A stretch of DNA of 64,000 nucleotides, from contig CBDCUJ010000001.1 of NCBI GenBank assembly GCA_965222595.1, positions 235,522 to 299,521 on the forward strand. The letters run 5' to 3'. How positions within the stretch are numbered: the stretch's first letter is position 1; each line of letters opens with the position of its first letter. The stretch comes from Dehalococcoidia bacterium. Its GTDB lineage: Bacteria > Chloroflexota > Dehalococcoidia > Lucifugimonadales > UBA3495. This document shows, piece by piece, positions 9,349 through 40,958 of the stretch. The notes beneath the pieces are model-generated. The model was not told the origin of the DNA, did not search any database, and saw only the letters and a list, made by a program, of their open reading frames with translations. A program made the position numbers and the translations under genes.

Positions 9349-9635
9349 GGGAGAGAAACGGGCGCTGGGGTACCTCAGTTGTTCGTGTCAATTTGTACTG
9401 CGAATGCTTCGCTGGGAGGTTCTCATATAGCCTCGGTACGCCATTCCGTGATCGTGCATTCGAATATCACCGTGTCGGTTTCTCTGGGCGTAGGATTTAT
9501 CAGAGGCAGTCTTCCTCATCACTGCCTCGGACCTTCGTTTCCCTGGAGCATCTGCCGGAAAGAGACGGCAGGGGCTCAACGTGATCTGGAACAACGTCTC
9601 GACCCACTTGGGCCCGGCGATGCGGTCGTCCTTAG

Positions 9636-9765
9636 AGGGTGTGTGACAAGTCCCCTCTCCCTCTGGGAGAGGGTTAGGGTGAGGGCGTCCCGTAAGCTCT
9701 GCAGGAGCAACTAAGGCAAACTCACGCCAACTCATTGCACTCGAAAACGGTTTGTCACACACCCT
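9636..9765 (+). repeat. CTTAG-flanked stem-bounded repeat element (copy D) with hairpin+GGTTAGG core
   Basis: CTTAG (9631-9635), AGGGTGTGTGACAA, GTCCCCTCTCCCTCTGGGAGAGGGTTAGGGTGAGGGCG, ..., TTGTCACACACCCT, CTTAG (9766-9770). Confidence 0.65.
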
Positions 9766-10004
9766 CTTAGATATCCGGGCCTGACCCTGCGTCTGGTGAG
9801 CATGCCGCGAACAGCCCTGACTTCAACATCTATGAGGCTATCTGGAACTCGGTGTAGGAGGAAACGATAGGAAACAACGGCGCTGGTGCAGGATAGACGG
9901 AGCGCTTTTTTGCCAGCCTAGTCGACAGAAGAGAGGAGGTCAAACGGCGTTGCTGGACCGTCCTCCGATCTTGCATCGATTACGCACATCGTGCCGTTCA
10001 ATTT

Positions 10005-10616
10005 TCAGCCTCTGGCGAGGTCCGCAATCATTATTTTCGCTGTAGTGAGATATTCATCAACTTTGGCTACGGAATGTCTTTGGCGAGAGGTCAAGAACGC
10101 TTCTATTCTGACCCTGCTATTAGCACCGTAGACTACTCGAACCACTTCTCTGTAACCCTGTCTCGCCTGCGGACTCCTGTGTGCCAAGAAGTTCCGCACC
10201 TTTCTCATTTCACTGAGTATGTTTCCGTGGGCTTGCGCATAGACTATGAAGGGATCAGTAGAATTGAGAACTTGCGAAGTGCTATCGCGAATGTCCTTTA
10301 CGCTTGTCCATCTCAGGTAATTCTTCCTTTCTGATCGACCAAACGTGAGCATGGCGGATCTTGCGCCACCCATACTGTTGGCAGGGAAGAGCCTTGCCGG
10401 ACGAGCCCCGTTTACATAGGGGGCTCCTGCCACCAGTTTGCAAGCTATATCTTCGATCGCGCTCTCAACAATCGAGAACAGCCGCAGTATTATCAACTCG
10501 GTAATCAAGTATTGGTGCACTGGGGCCAGGGACCGGGAGTTTGCCCTAAATGTTTCAAGACGCTCGATATCAGTGGTAGTATTTCGTACAGTAACATCCA
10601 CCCGAGGTGCAGGCAT
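10005..10616 (-). CDS. HEPN-like protein (Rx4H motif), partner of the DUF262 gene
   Basis: 203 aa. C-terminal helix carries MRKVRNFLAHRS (R-x4-H HEPN signature). Its start ATG overlaps the upstream gene stop (TAATG). Looks AT-richer than the flanks by eye. Confidence 0.55.
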   Translation of the reverse strand: MPAPRVDVTVRNTTTDIERLETFRANSRSLAPVHQYLITELIILRLFSIVESAIEDIACKLVAGAPYVNGARPARLFPANSMGGARSAMLTFGRSERKNYLRWTSVKDIRDSTSQVLNSTDPFIVYAQAHGNILSEMRKVRNFLAHRSPQARQGYREVVRVVYGANSRVRIEAFLTSRQRHSVAKVDEYLTTAKIMIADLARG

Positions 10617-11611
10617 TATGTAAGGAACCTTCGTATGTAAGCATCCCTAATGGTCCGCTGCCGGATTCGTTGCGTTGTAGCGGTGGAAGCAATAACGAAC
10701 TGCTGGTCGTCATAAGTCTGATGTTCGCTATCTTGATGATATCGCGCATCGATTTCGTACAATGAATTCACGACCTTCGGGACTTCCAATTTTTTCATGG
10801 AATCCATCACCAGAAGCAGAGAGAAAAGGACAGGTTGACGGCCGAAGATAGTGTCGCGAATTACCGACGGCTCGATATCGGCAATGAAGTCAAATAGTCT
10901 GTCCATTCGCTGAGCCACTTCAGTTTGACATGGGAAGTCTTCTTCAAACTTTTTATAAATATTGCAAAGCCTCGTAGGACTGAAATCGGACAAGCCCTCA
11001 AGCAAATTCAGTGCCAAATCTGATATGAACTGCACTTCGTTCATCCTTGCGATGTCATTTGCAGTGAATATATTGTAAGTCCGCCACAGTTCCACCCTTG
11101 ACGATGCCTGCCGTAGACAGAATTGCTTGAATTCTCCGCTGAATGCCGAGTTACGTTTTTCTTGGGAATTAAGGCTTTTGCTTACAGAGTTGATCCTACC
11201 GAAAATGTCTATTACATCCGGATCCGTAGCACCCAGGAGATACCCAACCGGTATTCCGGTCAGCAAGAATGCCTCTCGCTCTGTTCTGTTCAACTGAGAG
11301 AAGGTTTGTCTGGCTCCGTTCTCCGGGTGTTTCACTGAGAACTCATTGCGGCAGAATCCGAGGATTGCCCTAATTCGCTGCTGTCCGTCGACGACTTCCC
11401 GGACGGTTTTCCCACGATCCAAGTCCAGTGAATACCTGATGTAGATGGCTGGAATGGGCTTTTGCTCAATGAGTGTATTAATCAAATACGATTTCTGAGG
11501 CGTGGTCCAAACCGAGCGCCGTTGATACCAAGGAGAGTAGTTGAGCTCCCCCGAGTTATCGAGGTTTCGGATATCCTGCACCATCAACGACTGATAATCA
11601 ACTCTGTCCAT
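10616..11611 (-). CDS. DUF262 (ParB/Srx-fold, GmrSD N-terminal-like) domain protein without a DUF1524 nuclease domain
   Basis: YSPWYQRRSVWTTPQKSYLINTLIEQKPIPAIYI and VVDGQQRIRAILGF (DGQQR motif). 331 aa. Confidence 0.8.
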   Translation of the reverse strand: MDRVDYQSLMVQDIRNLDNSGELNYSPWYQRRSVWTTPQKSYLINTLIEQKPIPAIYIRYSLDLDRGKTVREVVDGQQRIRAILGFCRNEFSVKHPENGARQTFSQLNRTEREAFLLTGIPVGYLLGATDPDVIDIFGRINSVSKSLNSQEKRNSAFSGEFKQFCLRQASSRVELWRTYNIFTANDIARMNEVQFISDLALNLLEGLSDFSPTRLCNIYKKFEEDFPCQTEVAQRMDRLFDFIADIEPSVIRDTIFGRQPVLFSLLLVMDSMKKLEVPKVVNSLYEIDARYHQDSEHQTYDDQQFVIASTATTQRIRQRTIRDAYIRRFLT

Positions 11612-11738
11612 ATCTCACCCGCATGTACCATCACTCACAAATCTGCCTTGGTTCGGTAGCATTAGCCGAAGTATATTGACCCACCCAGATTTCGCAATAG
11701 CTTGACCTAAACCAAGGTGAAACGTGCAGTTAGTCTAA

Positions 11739-11831
11739 GCCCCATTTTCTGTACCAAGTTCAGTGCGAATTGTGCGGGTCATGGTCTTGCCCCATTTTCT
11801 GTACCAAGCTTAGTGCGAGTTTTGCGGGTCA
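11739..11831 (+). repeat. Two imperfect 43-bp direct repeats with a 50-bp period
   Basis: GCCCCATTTTCTGTACCAAGTTCAGTGCGAATTGTGCGGGTCA (11739-11781) and GCCCCATTTTCTGTACCAAGCTTAGTGCGAGTTTTGCGGGTCA (11789-11831), 39/43 identical. Located between the DUF262 promoter region and the tRNA 3' end. Confidence 0.8.
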
Positions 11832-11874
11832 ATCCGCTGTTTCAGCCAATGCGCTAAGCTTCCAAAAGCAGAAG

Positions 11875-11946
11875 TGGGCCCGGCAGGGATCGAACCTGCC
11901 ACCAGCCGGTTATGAGCCGGCTGCTCTACCACTGAGCTACGGGCCC
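11875..11946 (-). tRNA. tRNA with CAT anticodon (elongator Met, or Ile2 if lysidine-modified)
   Basis: Reverse complement GGGCCCGTAGCTCAGTGGTAGAGCAGCCGGCTCATAACCGGCTGGTGGCAGGTTCGATCCCTGCCGGGCCCA folds as a cloverleaf: 7-bp acceptor stem, GCTC/GAGC D stem, GCCGG/CCGGC anticodon stem with loop CTCATAA, TTCGATC T loop. G1-C72 argues against an initiator. No encoded CCA. Confidence 0.9.
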
Positions 11947-12076: not shown

Positions 12077-13429
12077 TTACAGGCCCAAACGCTGGCGGTA
12101 GTCGGGGTCCCAGGCGGCCAGTGTGCCTCGTTCCAATGCTTCGAGTTCCGGTGCCCGGGGGGACGCTTCTCCGGTCAGCGGCACGGTGGCCACGATGGCT
12201 TCTTGGACCAGTCGCTGGTAGTCTTCCTCGTCCATCCCTAGAAGCTCTTGCAAAATCGGGCCGTTGTGCTGCCCGAAGGTGGGGCTGGGACCGTGTATCC
12301 GCAGGTTGCTTTTGGAGAATTTGTAGGGCCGGCCGATGAAGGGCCGCGAGCCCATGCCCCGCTCCGTGGGATAGTCGACACGCTCCAGGAATCCCCGGTC
12401 CCGGTAGTGGGGGTCGAAGTGTACGTCTTTGCCGGTCAGTACGGGGCCCGAAGCGATTCCCACCCCTTGAAGGGCATGCATCAGGTCGTAGCGGTCCCGC
12501 TCCGCTGTCCATGCACTGATGATGTCGTCTAGCGCGTCGTGATTGCGCCGCCGCGACGGCAGGTCGAAGAAACGGGGGTCGGCCTTCAATTCAGGCTGGC
12601 CCATTAAATCGCACAACGCCAGCCATTCCGCATCGTCGGCCACCGACAACGCAATCCACTGGTCGTCGCCCAAAGCCGGATAGCACCCTTGCGGCGCCCG
12701 GTGGGGATGGCGGTTGCCGATGCGGGCCCCTTCCCTGCCGTTGGCCACGGCGTCCACGATGTATTCGGACAGGAACATCACGCCGGCCTGGTACATGCCG
12801 ATGTCGGCCCACTGTCCCAGCCCGGTCTTGTTGCGATAGCGAAGCGCGGAGCCGATGGCGAACAGGGCGGTCCAAGTCGACAGGAAGTCTACGAAGGACG
12901 CGCCAGCCTTGGCGGGACCTCCGTCGGGGTAACCTGTGACCCAGCAATGGCCGTGGGTCCCCTCCTGTGTCGTGGCTTGGGCCGGGTAGCCCGAGTACGG
13001 TCCGCCTCCGTGGCCGTAGCCGGTGTTGGACACCATGATGATGTCGGGGTTTATCTTTCGTAGGTTGGGATAGTCCAGCCCCCAGTTGCGCATGACCCTG
13101 GGCGTGAAGTTCTCCATGACCACGTCGCTGACGCTGACCAGTTGCCGGAACAGGTCCCGCCCCCGTTCGTCGGTGAGGTCCAGGGTGAGGGACTGCTTGC
13201 CGCGGTGGATGACATTGTAGGTGGACGGGCGGTTCCACCAGTCATCCCCGGAATCGTTCTCGGGGAAAGCGCCGGAATAGCCGCCGGTGCGCGTGATGTC
13301 GGGGCGGCCCGGCCCCTCGACCTTGATAACCTCCGCGCCCATGTCGGCCAGCAAGCCGCCGGCATAGGGCAGGGCGAACACGTAGGTGGAGTCGACCACC
13401 CGTATGCCTTCCAGCGGGAGCCCAGCCAT
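12077..13429 (-). CDS. Family III CoA-transferase (CaiB/BaiF)
   Basis: LEGIRVVDSTYVFALPYAGGLLADMGAEVIKVE N-terminal signature. 450 aa. Confidence 0.85.
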   Translation of the reverse strand: MAGLPLEGIRVVDSTYVFALPYAGGLLADMGAEVIKVEGPGRPDITRTGGYSGAFPENDSGDDWWNRPSTYNVIHRGKQSLTLDLTDERGRDLFRQLVSVSDVVMENFTPRVMRNWGLDYPNLRKINPDIIMVSNTGYGHGGGPYSGYPAQATTQEGTHGHCWVTGYPDGGPAKAGASFVDFLSTWTALFAIGSALRYRNKTGLGQWADIGMYQAGVMFLSEYIVDAVANGREGARIGNRHPHRAPQGCYPALGDDQWIALSVADDAEWLALCDLMGQPELKADPRFFDLPSRRRNHDALDDIISAWTAERDRYDLMHALQGVGIASGPVLTGKDVHFDPHYRDRGFLERVDYPTERGMGSRPFIGRPYKFSKSNLRIHGPSPTFGQHNGPILQELLGMDEEDYQRLVQEAIVATVPLTGEASPRAPELEALERGTLAAWDPDYRQRLGL

Positions 13430-13547
13430 TGCTATCTTAACGCCTCCATTCAGTCTGAATCAGGATTCCCCGAACTAGGGCATTAACAAAGTTCGCAGTT
13501 CCCAATCCTGGGAATCCCAAAATCTTGATAATTCTGATTCAAACAGT

Positions 13548-14828
13548 CTATATCGCGCCGGTCTGGCGGAGCCTCACCAACTCCTGCCGGGTATAGCCCA
13601 AGCCGTCCACGTAGATTTCGTGGTTGTGTTGCCCCAGGGTAGGGGCCGGAGCGATGTAACGGTAGGGGGTCAGGCTCAGGTTGAACAACACCGCCGGGAC
13701 CTTGATCTTGCCGATCACCGGGTGGTCGACTTCCCGGTAGAAGCCCCTGGACTCCAACTGGGGGCAGTCCGCCAACTCCGAGGGGGTCTGCACCAGGCCG
13801 AACAGCATCCTTGCTTGGGCCGCCTCGGTGAACAGGTCCCACTTGCCGCGGTCTTTGATGGAGTCCAGCACTATGCGGTCCAGCTCCTCGCCGTTCTGAT
13901 TGCGCTGACCCGTCTCCGCGAACCTGGGTTCGCGCAACTCCGGCGGGCCGAAGAAGTCGGCGATAGTCTCCCAAGTGGCGCCGCCGCCGGTTTGAACGAT
14001 TATCCAACCGTCTTCGCAGGGCATGGGATGGCCGAAATTACTGCCGGTGGGCCGGCGGCGCGGTTGGGTGCCGCCCATGAACGGGTACATGGTCTGGGTG
14101 GCCATCATGGTCGAAGCCACACACTCGGTTACCGAAACGTCGATATGCTGGCCTTCGCCCGTGTTGCCAGCCATGAACAGGGCCATCGCGGTGGCCGCCG
14201 CACCGTTCAAGCCGCCTTCGTACTGGGCCTGAAATCCGCCGTGCTTCAGGGGCTCCTTGTCTTGGGAGCCGCTGATGCTCATGATCATCCCCATGGCGTA
14301 GCTGACAATCTCTTCCCCCTTGTACCCGCTGTAGGGCCCGGTCTGCCCGAAGGGGGTAATGGACGTCATAATCAATGACGGGTTCAGCGTTTCGAGACTG
14401 TCATAACCCACCCCGAGTCCGTCCAGGTAGCCAGGCCGGAAGCTCTCGACGACCACATCGACGTGCGGGACCAGCTGCTTCAGGAGGTCGCGGCCCGCGG
14501 CGTTTTCAAGGTTCAGGTTGGCGCTCTTCTTGTTCAGGTTCAGCAACAAGAAGAACAGGCTTTTTTCGGGATGAGGGTCGTCACCGAAAAAGGGGGGCGC
14601 CCGGCGCAGGGCCGAGCCTCCCACCGGTTCCAGCTTCAACACATCGGCGCCGTAGTCCGCCAAGAGACGGGCGCAGAAGGACCCGGCGATGTCTTCGCTC
14701 AGGTCCAGTACCTTGACACCGTCCAAAGGGCCTAAGGCGAGCGAGGGCGGCAGGGTTGGGGAGTCGGCCAAGTCCGTATTTACTCCAATGCGGGAATATT
14801 CGTTAAGCCTAAATGGGCCCGGCGGCAA
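13548..14828 (-). CDS. Family III CoA-transferase (CaiB/BaiF)
   Basis: LDGVKVLDLSEDIAGSFCARLLADYGADVLKLEP signature. 426 aa. Exact start uncertain. Confidence 0.8.
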   Translation of the reverse strand: MPPGPFRLNEYSRIGVNTDLADSPTLPPSLALGPLDGVKVLDLSEDIAGSFCARLLADYGADVLKLEPVGGSALRRAPPFFGDDPHPEKSLFFLLLNLNKKSANLNLENAAGRDLLKQLVPHVDVVVESFRPGYLDGLGVGYDSLETLNPSLIMTSITPFGQTGPYSGYKGEEIVSYAMGMIMSISGSQDKEPLKHGGFQAQYEGGLNGAAATAMALFMAGNTGEGQHIDVSVTECVASTMMATQTMYPFMGGTQPRRRPTGSNFGHPMPCEDGWIIVQTGGGATWETIADFFGPPELREPRFAETGQRNQNGEELDRIVLDSIKDRGKWDLFTEAAQARMLFGLVQTPSELADCPQLESRGFYREVDHPVIGKIKVPAVLFNLSLTPYRYIAPAPTLGQHNHEIYVDGLGYTRQELVRLRQTGAI

Positions 14829-40297: not shown

Positions 40298-40749
40298 GCG
40301 GATCGCGCTCCCAAAGGGAAAATCAAGCTGGGCAAGCCGCTCCCAATGCGGCCGAAAGACGCCGGGATTGTACCATGGCGTCCGCTGGGAAGCGGATGGC
40401 CGTCAGCCTGTTTCGTGGGCTGTCCCCTGGGCTGCGTCCGTGTCGCAGAACCGGCCGCTGTCTTGCAACTCGGGGTCGATCTCCGCCCGTGTCCGTTCCG
40501 GTAGCGGCTCGAACGGGCCGTATGCGGCGAGGTAACGGCGGGCCAGTCCCGAAACAACCCTCAGGCCGCCACCTCTTGGACGATTCCTCGATGCCTCAGC
40601 CGGACCAGTCGAGGCGGTAGAACTGCGGCGGCGGCTCCAACTTGACAACACCGGCGGCTGAGCACATCATTAGGCAAAGCTTTTCGGACAAGACTACGCT
40701 AGGCGCGTTGTCACACTTTTACAATAGAATATCCCGCACAACAAGATCC

Positions 40750-40958
40750 AACGATGGAAGTGCCCTTCCCAGGGCTTGAACGGGGAAGCTGGTCAAAGTC
40801 CAGCACTGTCCCGCAACGGTAGGTCCCGATTTATCGGGGCGAGTCCGGTCCACGGCTTCCATCGATGTTCTTACCTTCGAGGAAAGGTACTGGCATAACC
40901 CGTTAGCCGCAAGAAGCCCTGTTCCTTCCCGGAGTAAGCGTTGGAACAGGGTTTTTTA
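40750..40958 (+). promoter_or_regulatory. Cobalamin (B12) riboswitch with an intrinsic terminator expression platform
   Basis: P1 GATGGAAG (40752-40759) pairs with CTTCCATC (40856-40863). Core AACGGGGAAGCTGGTCAAAGTCCAGCACTGTCCCGCAACGGTA (B12 box) and GAGTCCGG. Followed by a terminator hairpin. Sits upstream of BtuF-like ABC importer genes. Confidence 0.75.
40917..40957 (+). terminator. Rho-independent terminator (riboswitch expression platform)
   Basis: CCCTGTTCC (40917-40925), 17-nt loop, GGAACAGGG (40943-40951), then TTTTTT. Confidence 0.7.

Follow-up and report, generated by a model that had tools for sequence, protein, structure and literature searches.

The combination of a DUF262 protein with a small HEPN protein has been described before, both as a defence system and as a recurrent operon. 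PD-T4-2 of Escherichia coli ECOR65 was listed by Vassallo et al. (2022; PMC9519451) as "DUF262, HEPN", with two coding sequences spanning 1540 bp. Its position there is QOYX01000002:338334-339873, where PD-T4-2A is RCO39066.1 and the second open reading frame carries no annotation. HHpred assigned PF03235 to its component A, and HEPN_RiboL-PSP (97.8%) followed by MAE_28990 (96.9%) to its component B (PMC9519451). Deletion of PD-T4-2 sensitises ECOR65 to T4, and the system gives E. coli protection from T4 in its native setting as well as after transfer (PMC9519451). Reviews place PD-T4-2 among the DUF262 systems without DUF1524. Anantharaman et al. (2013; PMC3710099) had earlier recorded RiboL-PSP-HEPN and MAE_28990 HEPN proteins "in operon with ParB", listing such partners as "ParB nuclease" operons in restriction-modification contexts. 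The HEPN RNases known from defence cleave tRNA or mRNA and work through abortive infection, and the Menshen study described NsnA as a ParB-DUF262 protein with a DNA-binding helical C-terminal domain and proposed it as a DNA sensor. No mechanism of PD-T4-2-like systems was described in the literature that we searched. Here we analyse two adjacent genes, A (DUF262) and B (putative HEPN RNase), in a 64,000-nucleotide stretch of a Dehalococcoidia bacterium genome (assembly GCA_965222595.1, contig CBDCUJ010000001.1, positions 235,522 to 299,521), hereafter the window.

The pair was first noticed from the sequence alone, in a prediction that did not recognise this pairing among named defence systems. 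Given that PD-T4-2 and the ParB-HEPN operons had been published in 2022 and 2013, respectively, the pairing is neither unnamed nor unpredicted. A-B is instead a diverged member of the PD-T4-2-type DUF262 and HEPN design and not a new kind of system. Correspondence to this named system holds at the level of architecture, but does not extend to the PD-T4-2_B sequence model, which the window's B does not match.

Conservation and domain content of the gene pair

The original prediction gave the two open reading frames, their TAATG overlap and the motifs quoted below correctly. The genes also proved to be conserved together: B directly followed A in 22 of 22 loci in which an A orthologue (48-98% identity) came with its immediate downstream sequence. 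These loci span Chloroflexota, Bacteroidota, Pseudomonadota and Desulfobacterota as well as viral contigs from IMG/VR. Besides seven additional genomes of Dehalococcoidia/Chloroflexota and five of Bacteroidota, they include a partial Ferruginibacter contig, Pseudomonas, Acidovorax, Fundidesulfovibrio and the viral contigs, five in number. B was intact in 19 of the 22, the exceptions being a frameshifted copy (L008), a copy cut by an insertion sequence (L018) and a copy lying only partly on its contig (L015). Of 11 genome loci in Chloroflexota and Bacteroidota, 9 keep the one-base T[AG]ATG overlap, and in the remaining two the junction is within 2 nt. No third conserved gene was seen beside A-B across the loci compared. 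Hence, A and B are strictly co-conserved and translationally coupled across phyla.

The pairing also extended to more distant relatives. The conjugative plasmid pRE117-1 of the actinobacterium Glutamicibacter carries a pair in which A is 34% identical and B is matched by hhalign at 98.5%, adjoining Fic/VbhA and a recombinase. A tblastn search of B against plasmids gave no match. Among A-like genes at 27-35% identity on viral contigs, the next gene matched the hidden Markov model (HMM) of the B family in 20/26 resolvable loci. All but one of these 20 partners were 203-228 amino acids (aa) long with the motif RNxxAH, and two more partners had the motif but no HMM match. A was more conserved than B, at 53-61% versus 30-42% identity between Chloroflexota, Bacteroidota and Pseudomonadota (54/35% for Flavobacterium and 58/39% for Pseudomonas). 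This stronger conservation of A was seen at loci L002-L013, L025, L028, L029 and L093-L097. Separately, on the Asticcacaulis plasmid pASTEX02 (L020, 2971-5113), the gene for a DUF262 protein with 30% identity to A overlaps a protein kinase gene that follows it in place of a HEPN gene, and a Tn3 transposase and a recombinase lie alongside. Here the DUF262 protein appears to have exchanged its effector partner.

Protein A is a ParB/Srx-fold DUF262 protein of the NTPase type with no DUF1524 nuclease, as the original prediction had it, joined to a helical domain. Its sole Pfam match was PF03235 (GmrSD_N/DUF262; E = 6.8e-19, residues 20-157), and the Pfam scan of its 331 aa, the C-terminal half of which is helical, did not find the DUF1524 His-Me nuclease domain. 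The motifs WYQRRSVW and DGQQR lie at residues 28-35 and 75-79. Positions invariant in our alignments of A (A3 and A4) comprised QRR (30-32), KPxP, VDGQQR (ending in the DGQQR just mentioned), F137/R139/N141 and LNxxExxN. We found 1833 homologues of A at E ≤ 1e-10, all of about 328-333 aa, with 56-61% identity in Pseudomonas, Acidovorax, Alcanivorax and Fundidesulfovibrio. In PADLOC the best model was NsnA (2.2e-28, 97.6 bits), followed by PD-T4-2_A (PDLC04027; 2.1e-20), and a type II restriction endonuclease model also matched. The PD-T4-2_A match, at 71 bits, consisted of two stretches and covered part of the model only, NsnA scoring higher.

The AlphaFold (AF2) model of A, with a predicted local distance difference test (pLDDT) score of 85, is alpha/beta in its N-terminal half and helical in its C-terminal half. 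The ParB/Srx-fold DUF262 domain occupies about residues 1-160 and the helical domain about 160-331. When searched against known structures, its top match in the PDB was BrxU (7p9k; E = 2.2e-4), a type IV enzyme of the GmrSD family. BrxU was followed by the CTP-binding N-terminal domains of ParB, Noc and KorB, then by SspE and sulfiredoxin. We assign A to the ParB/Srx-fold DUF262 proteins because the Pfam match, the invariant motifs and these BrxU- and ParB-type structural matches agree.

Protein B carries the motif VRNFLAH at residues 140-146. B has 56 close relatives, and at E ≤ 1e-3 an exhaustive profile search returned 407 clusters at 50% identity, almost always about 200 aa long. Across 82 diverse relatives with identities down to 22%, the only invariant columns were R141 and H146, and N142 and A145 were conserved in at least 90%, giving the RNxxAH form of the HEPN signature Rx4-6H. 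When these 82 relatives were scanned against Pfam at E ≤ 1, HEPN_RiboL-PSP (PF18735) matched 42 and HEPN_Swt1 matched 32. At E ≤ 1e-3, HEPN families were the only ones left, with PF18735 in six relatives (best 1.4e-7), Swt1 in two and Cthe_2314 in one. Bacteroidota orthologues of B aligned to nearly the full PF18735 model at 12.7-25.1 bits, the gathering score being 28.4. A bridging protein, the partner on viral contig L101, matched both the B-family HMM (1.6e-25) and PF18735 at 29.0 bits, above that gathering score. Ten hand-picked relatives gave nothing in Pfam at E ≤ 0.01, and profile searches for sequence relatives of B in the PDB were empty or spurious. The AF2 model of B is all-helical, with nine helices and a pLDDT of 93.8. 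Since the RNxxAH residues are invariant, HEPN families are the only Pfam families matched by the relatives, and L101 provides a bridge, we accept B as a probable HEPN-type protein, a putative RNase of the RiboL-PSP-HEPN neighbourhood, on motif, profile and context evidence.

Genomic setting and mobility

The features of the locus are collected in Table 1. The pair spans 1607 bp in total, and the 3' end of the tRNA faces it as originally described, with the cassette lying 263 bp past that end.

Table 1. Features of the A-B locus, in window coordinates
Feature	Position	Strand	Remarks
Gene A	10616..11611	-	331 aa; from the open reading frame list
Gene B	10005..10616	-	203 aa; from the open reading frame list
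TAATG stop/start overlap of A and B	10614..10618	-	one base common to the A stop and B start; translational coupling
5' region travelling with the cassette	11612..11712	-	sigma-70-like site and Shine-Dalgarno-like sequence
tRNA-Met(CAT)	11874..11946	-	ARAGORN and Rfam; context only

Guanine-cytosine (GC) content was 0.483 for the pair and 0.609 for the whole window. An AT-richer islet, previously judged by eye to extend over 9.35-11.85 kb, was confirmed by measurement, with sliding-window GC of 0.45-0.52 compared to 0.60-0.65 in both flanks, but its extent was closer to 9.8-11.85 kb (9.8-11.8 kb by the sliding window). The same bias recurred elsewhere: the pair was AT-richer than its flanks in 14/15 genome loci (by 0.03-0.27) and in 5/5 viral loci.

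Upstream of A, a consensus scan found a putative sigma-70-like promoter (TTGCGA-16-TATACT, 11697-11670), and the Shine-Dalgarno-like sequence GGTGAG precedes the ATG of A. The roughly 100 bp 5' of A were 70-75% conserved among the window, L002 and L003 despite different flanking genes, which is why the cassette seems to bring a promoter of its own, although promoter function is read from sequence here. Between this conserved region and the 3' end of tRNA-Met lies a 50-bp tandem duplication (11739-11831; two 43-nt copies, 91% identical) that is absent from the upstream regions of L002 and L003.

The islet had also been thought to be bounded by a repeat element at 9636-9765. This element proved to be a 135-bp insert (9631-9770) with 19-nt terminal inverted repeats (9631-9649 and 9752-9770) that folds strongly (z = -4.97) and is present as a single copy in the window. 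It was found in none of the 92 loci searched. In the window, TCTAAG is present at each end of the insert, and L001, a sibling contig of ~99% identity that has no insert, contains it once. The element therefore looks like a recent insertion resembling a miniature inverted-repeat transposable element, with a target-site duplication, in an event independent of the islet. We rejected it as an edge of the islet because L001 still carries the A-B pair.

On the other side of the tRNA, two tandem CoA-transferase family III genes followed by tRNA-Met (window 12077-14828; L030-L059) form a block kept in 28 marine metagenome contigs at 67-84% identity. Neither A nor B was present downstream of the CoA-transferase/tRNA-Met block in any of these 28 syntenic loci. 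Synteny breaks right after the tRNA in all 28 contigs, implying a variable region on the 3' side of tRNA-Met; for the same reason, no clean empty site for A-B could be defined. We found no att-like duplication of the tRNA 3' end and no integrase, and the cassette was not flanked by repeats in any locus. One Flavobacterium copy likewise lies just 3' of a tRNA (tRNA-Val).

Neighbours of A-B differ between genomes and are mostly metabolic genes, as they are in the window. The distribution of the pair is sporadic and mobile, with copies carried by a plasmid and by predicted viral contigs. The cassette looks horizontally acquired, in agreement with the original prediction, given its deviant GC content, its varying neighbours and its absence from the 28 syntenic loci.

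Individual copies showed further features. In the Dehalococcoidia locus L018 (7659-10594), an IS3-family element (HTH_Tnp_1 and rve) lies between a truncated A and a B without its N-terminus, with PhdYeFM/PIN and HicAB toxin-antitoxin pairs in the vicinity, and another Dehalococcoidia copy has a frameshift in B. In Pseudomonas sp. Root68 (L025, 4657-6592), a SMODS nucleotidyltransferase and an S_4TM effector, a pair resembling CBASS (cyclic oligonucleotide-based anti-phage signalling), lie 3.4 kb upstream of A-B; this was the sole clear defence-island context among the loci seen. Elsewhere in the window, a cobalamin riboswitch (40741-40874, + strand; Rfam RF00174, 55 bits) is unrelated to the pair.

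Proposed mechanism and alternatives

We consider it probable that A-B is an anti-phage module of the PD-T4-2 type, a self-contained unit of two genes that moves horizontally, with A as sensor or switch and B as a HEPN RNase acting by abortive infection. Direct support comes from the domain identities, the invariant catalytic-type motifs, the pairing and coupling across phyla, and the mobile distribution. We infer a physical complex of A and B, a trigger, an RNA target and an abortive outcome, which may fit together as follows. As the likely sensor or switch, A would bind invading, possibly modified, DNA and would bind or hydrolyse a nucleoside triphosphate, by analogy with BrxU, SspE, GmrSD and NsnA; its helical domain is probably DNA-binding. 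Translational coupling would ensure that B is made in fixed proportion to A. B would be a small HEPN RNase acting as a dimer, with the RNxxAH residues presumably catalytic, and A would keep it inactive until triggered. Once triggered, B might cut tRNA or mRNA, whereupon translation would stop and the infected cell would be arrested.

Several results weigh against this reading. Even at E ≤ 1, the window's B itself matched no model of Pfam, NCBIfam or PADLOC, the PADLOC model for PD-T4-2_B included. Among its relatives, the PD-T4-2_B model matched only 1/82 (E = 0.035), and it matched 0/10 viral-contig partners. Given that this model misses the clade, the case for homology to PD-T4-2 consists of the common architecture and of RiboL-PSP-HEPN being indicated for both B proteins. 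The profile of B was also weakly related to the family of E. coli MAE_28990-type partners (probability 11.6%, E = 0.0026). Foldseek with the model of B against PDB and BFVD returned nothing at E ≤ 0.001, and none of the matches listed was a HEPN structure, although all-alpha folds are a weak spot of the method. The HEPN assignment in the original prediction is upheld by the invariant RNxxAH residues, the HEPN-only Pfam matches and the L101 bridge, while the fold was not confirmed by structure search. Our neighbourhood survey found the one copy beside the CBASS-like pair, but most genomic copies stand alone between housekeeping genes, outside defence islands. Finally, the better conservation of A than B is unusual for a sensor-effector pair, in which the sensor is usually variable and the effector conserved.

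This last pattern raises the possibility that the clade works differently from what is assumed for PD-T4-2. The unusual conservation of A, with B diverging about twice as fast, suggests that A may act on a universal ligand (a nucleotide or generic DNA), with specificity, or an arms race with phage inhibitors, residing in B. We offer this only tentatively and think it rather unlikely. If true, the usual pattern of variable sensor and conserved effector would be reversed.

The tight overlap of the genes, larger first, and their strict co-inheritance are also what would be expected of a toxin-antitoxin-like addiction cassette, in which a HEPN toxin (B) and its antitoxin or regulator (A) form a selfish or DNA-stabilising unit with no dedicated anti-phage role. 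HEPN toxins are classic toxins of such systems, copies of A-B stand alone, scattered among housekeeping genes, and the plasmid copy beside Fic/VbhA and a recombinase would fit as well. Nevertheless, we regard this explanation as unlikely: with its 331 aa and invariant NTPase motifs, A is enzyme-like and differs from the known HEPN antitoxins (MNT), and PD-T4-2 gives phage defence with the same architecture. Moreover, toxin-antitoxin behaviour and abortive-infection defence are mutually compatible. It seems quite unlikely that A-B is a DNA-targeting, restriction-like system, in which A would nick or cleave foreign (modified) DNA, in keeping with the "ParB nuclease" reading of Aravind, and B would be an accessory subunit binding RNA or nucleotides. 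The type IV restriction enzyme BrxU is the closest structural match of A, and the 2013 catalogue (PMC3710099) set its "ParB nuclease" operons in restriction-modification contexts; however, A is without the DUF1524 His-Me domain that does the cleavage in GmrSD, BrxU and SspE, and the absolute invariance of the catalytic-type R and H of B argues for a probably active RNase. The metabolic neighbours in the window could point to a housekeeping role in RNA processing or DNA segregation, the linkage of the genes being fortuitous or lineage-specific. Such a role is very improbable in view of the sporadic distribution of the pair: 28 syntenic relatives do without it, its neighbours change with every genome, and its GC content deviates. 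It also sits poorly with copies on a plasmid and viral contigs and with the tolerance of copies that are frameshifted or broken by insertion sequences.

The clade is very widespread, B forming at least 407 clusters at 50% identity and A having the 1833 relatives found above. The present pair extends the PD-T4-2-type design beyond Enterobacteria to Dehalococcoidia (marine Chloroflexota), Bacteroidota, Desulfobacterota, actinobacterial plasmids and many predicted prophages. This large clade escapes current PADLOC models and Pfam thresholds. Because present models miss it, profiles built from our alignments A2 and A3 would improve the annotation of defence systems. The pair reveals no new principle, and its strict coupling, invariant motifs and pattern of conserved A and fast-evolving B offer concrete mutational and biochemical targets.

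Comparison with described systems

Menshen (NsnABC) shares with A the ParB-DUF262 domain and helical C-terminal domain, and NsnA is the best PADLOC match of A. In contrast to Menshen, A-B has no NsnB ABC-ATPase and no NsnC inPIN-nuclease, and the only conserved partner of A is the 203-aa HEPN protein; no ATPase gene was conserved near A-B in any locus examined. The DUF262-DUF1524 fusions GmrSD, BrxU, SspE and HEC-06 have the same DUF262 NTPase domain with DGQQR, and BrxU is the top structural match, but A does not have their DUF1524 His-Me domain and the effector is a separate RNase-type protein. For Dazbog (DzbAB), no model appeared among PADLOC matches at E ≤ 1 for either A or B.

On the effector side, HEPN-MNT (HepT/MntA), AbiD/F, PD-T7-3/DARNA and ApeA resemble B in using a small HEPN protein with Rx4-6H as a toxic RNase. 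Where HEPN-MNT has an MNT nucleotidyltransferase as the partner, B is paired with a DUF262 NTPase, and no nucleotidyltransferase was found in the window neighbourhood of A-B. Unlike the single-gene HEPN defences, B has no fused sensor domain.

The ParB-HEPN operons of Anantharaman et al. (2013) come closer, placing a ParB-type protein beside a RiboL-PSP or MAE_28990 HEPN protein, and relatives of B match PF18735. They differ in that the window's B falls under all Pfam thresholds and its profile is weakly related to the MAE_28990-type partners of E. coli. On E. coli plasmids, DUF262 is followed by a HEPN protein annotated by NCBI as MAE_28990-type. Comparing the B family by hhalign with single E. 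coli partners, or with the MAE_28990-type alignment, gave local similarity only (RNxxAH and the N-terminal helix) at probabilities of ≤ 12%. These plasmid pairs were considered as PD-T4-2 and rejected by the PADLOC PD-T4-2_B model.

PD-T4-2 remains the nearest design, as judged from its published description and from profile models rather than sequence to sequence. It differs in that A scores higher on NsnA than on PD-T4-2_A and in that the host here belongs to Chloroflexota and not E. coli. Both are two-gene operons of similar length (1540 versus 1607 bp) with DUF262 first, a small HEPN protein second and no DUF1524, and the PD-T4-2_A model matches the A of this Dehalococcoidia pair over part of the model (2.1e-20).

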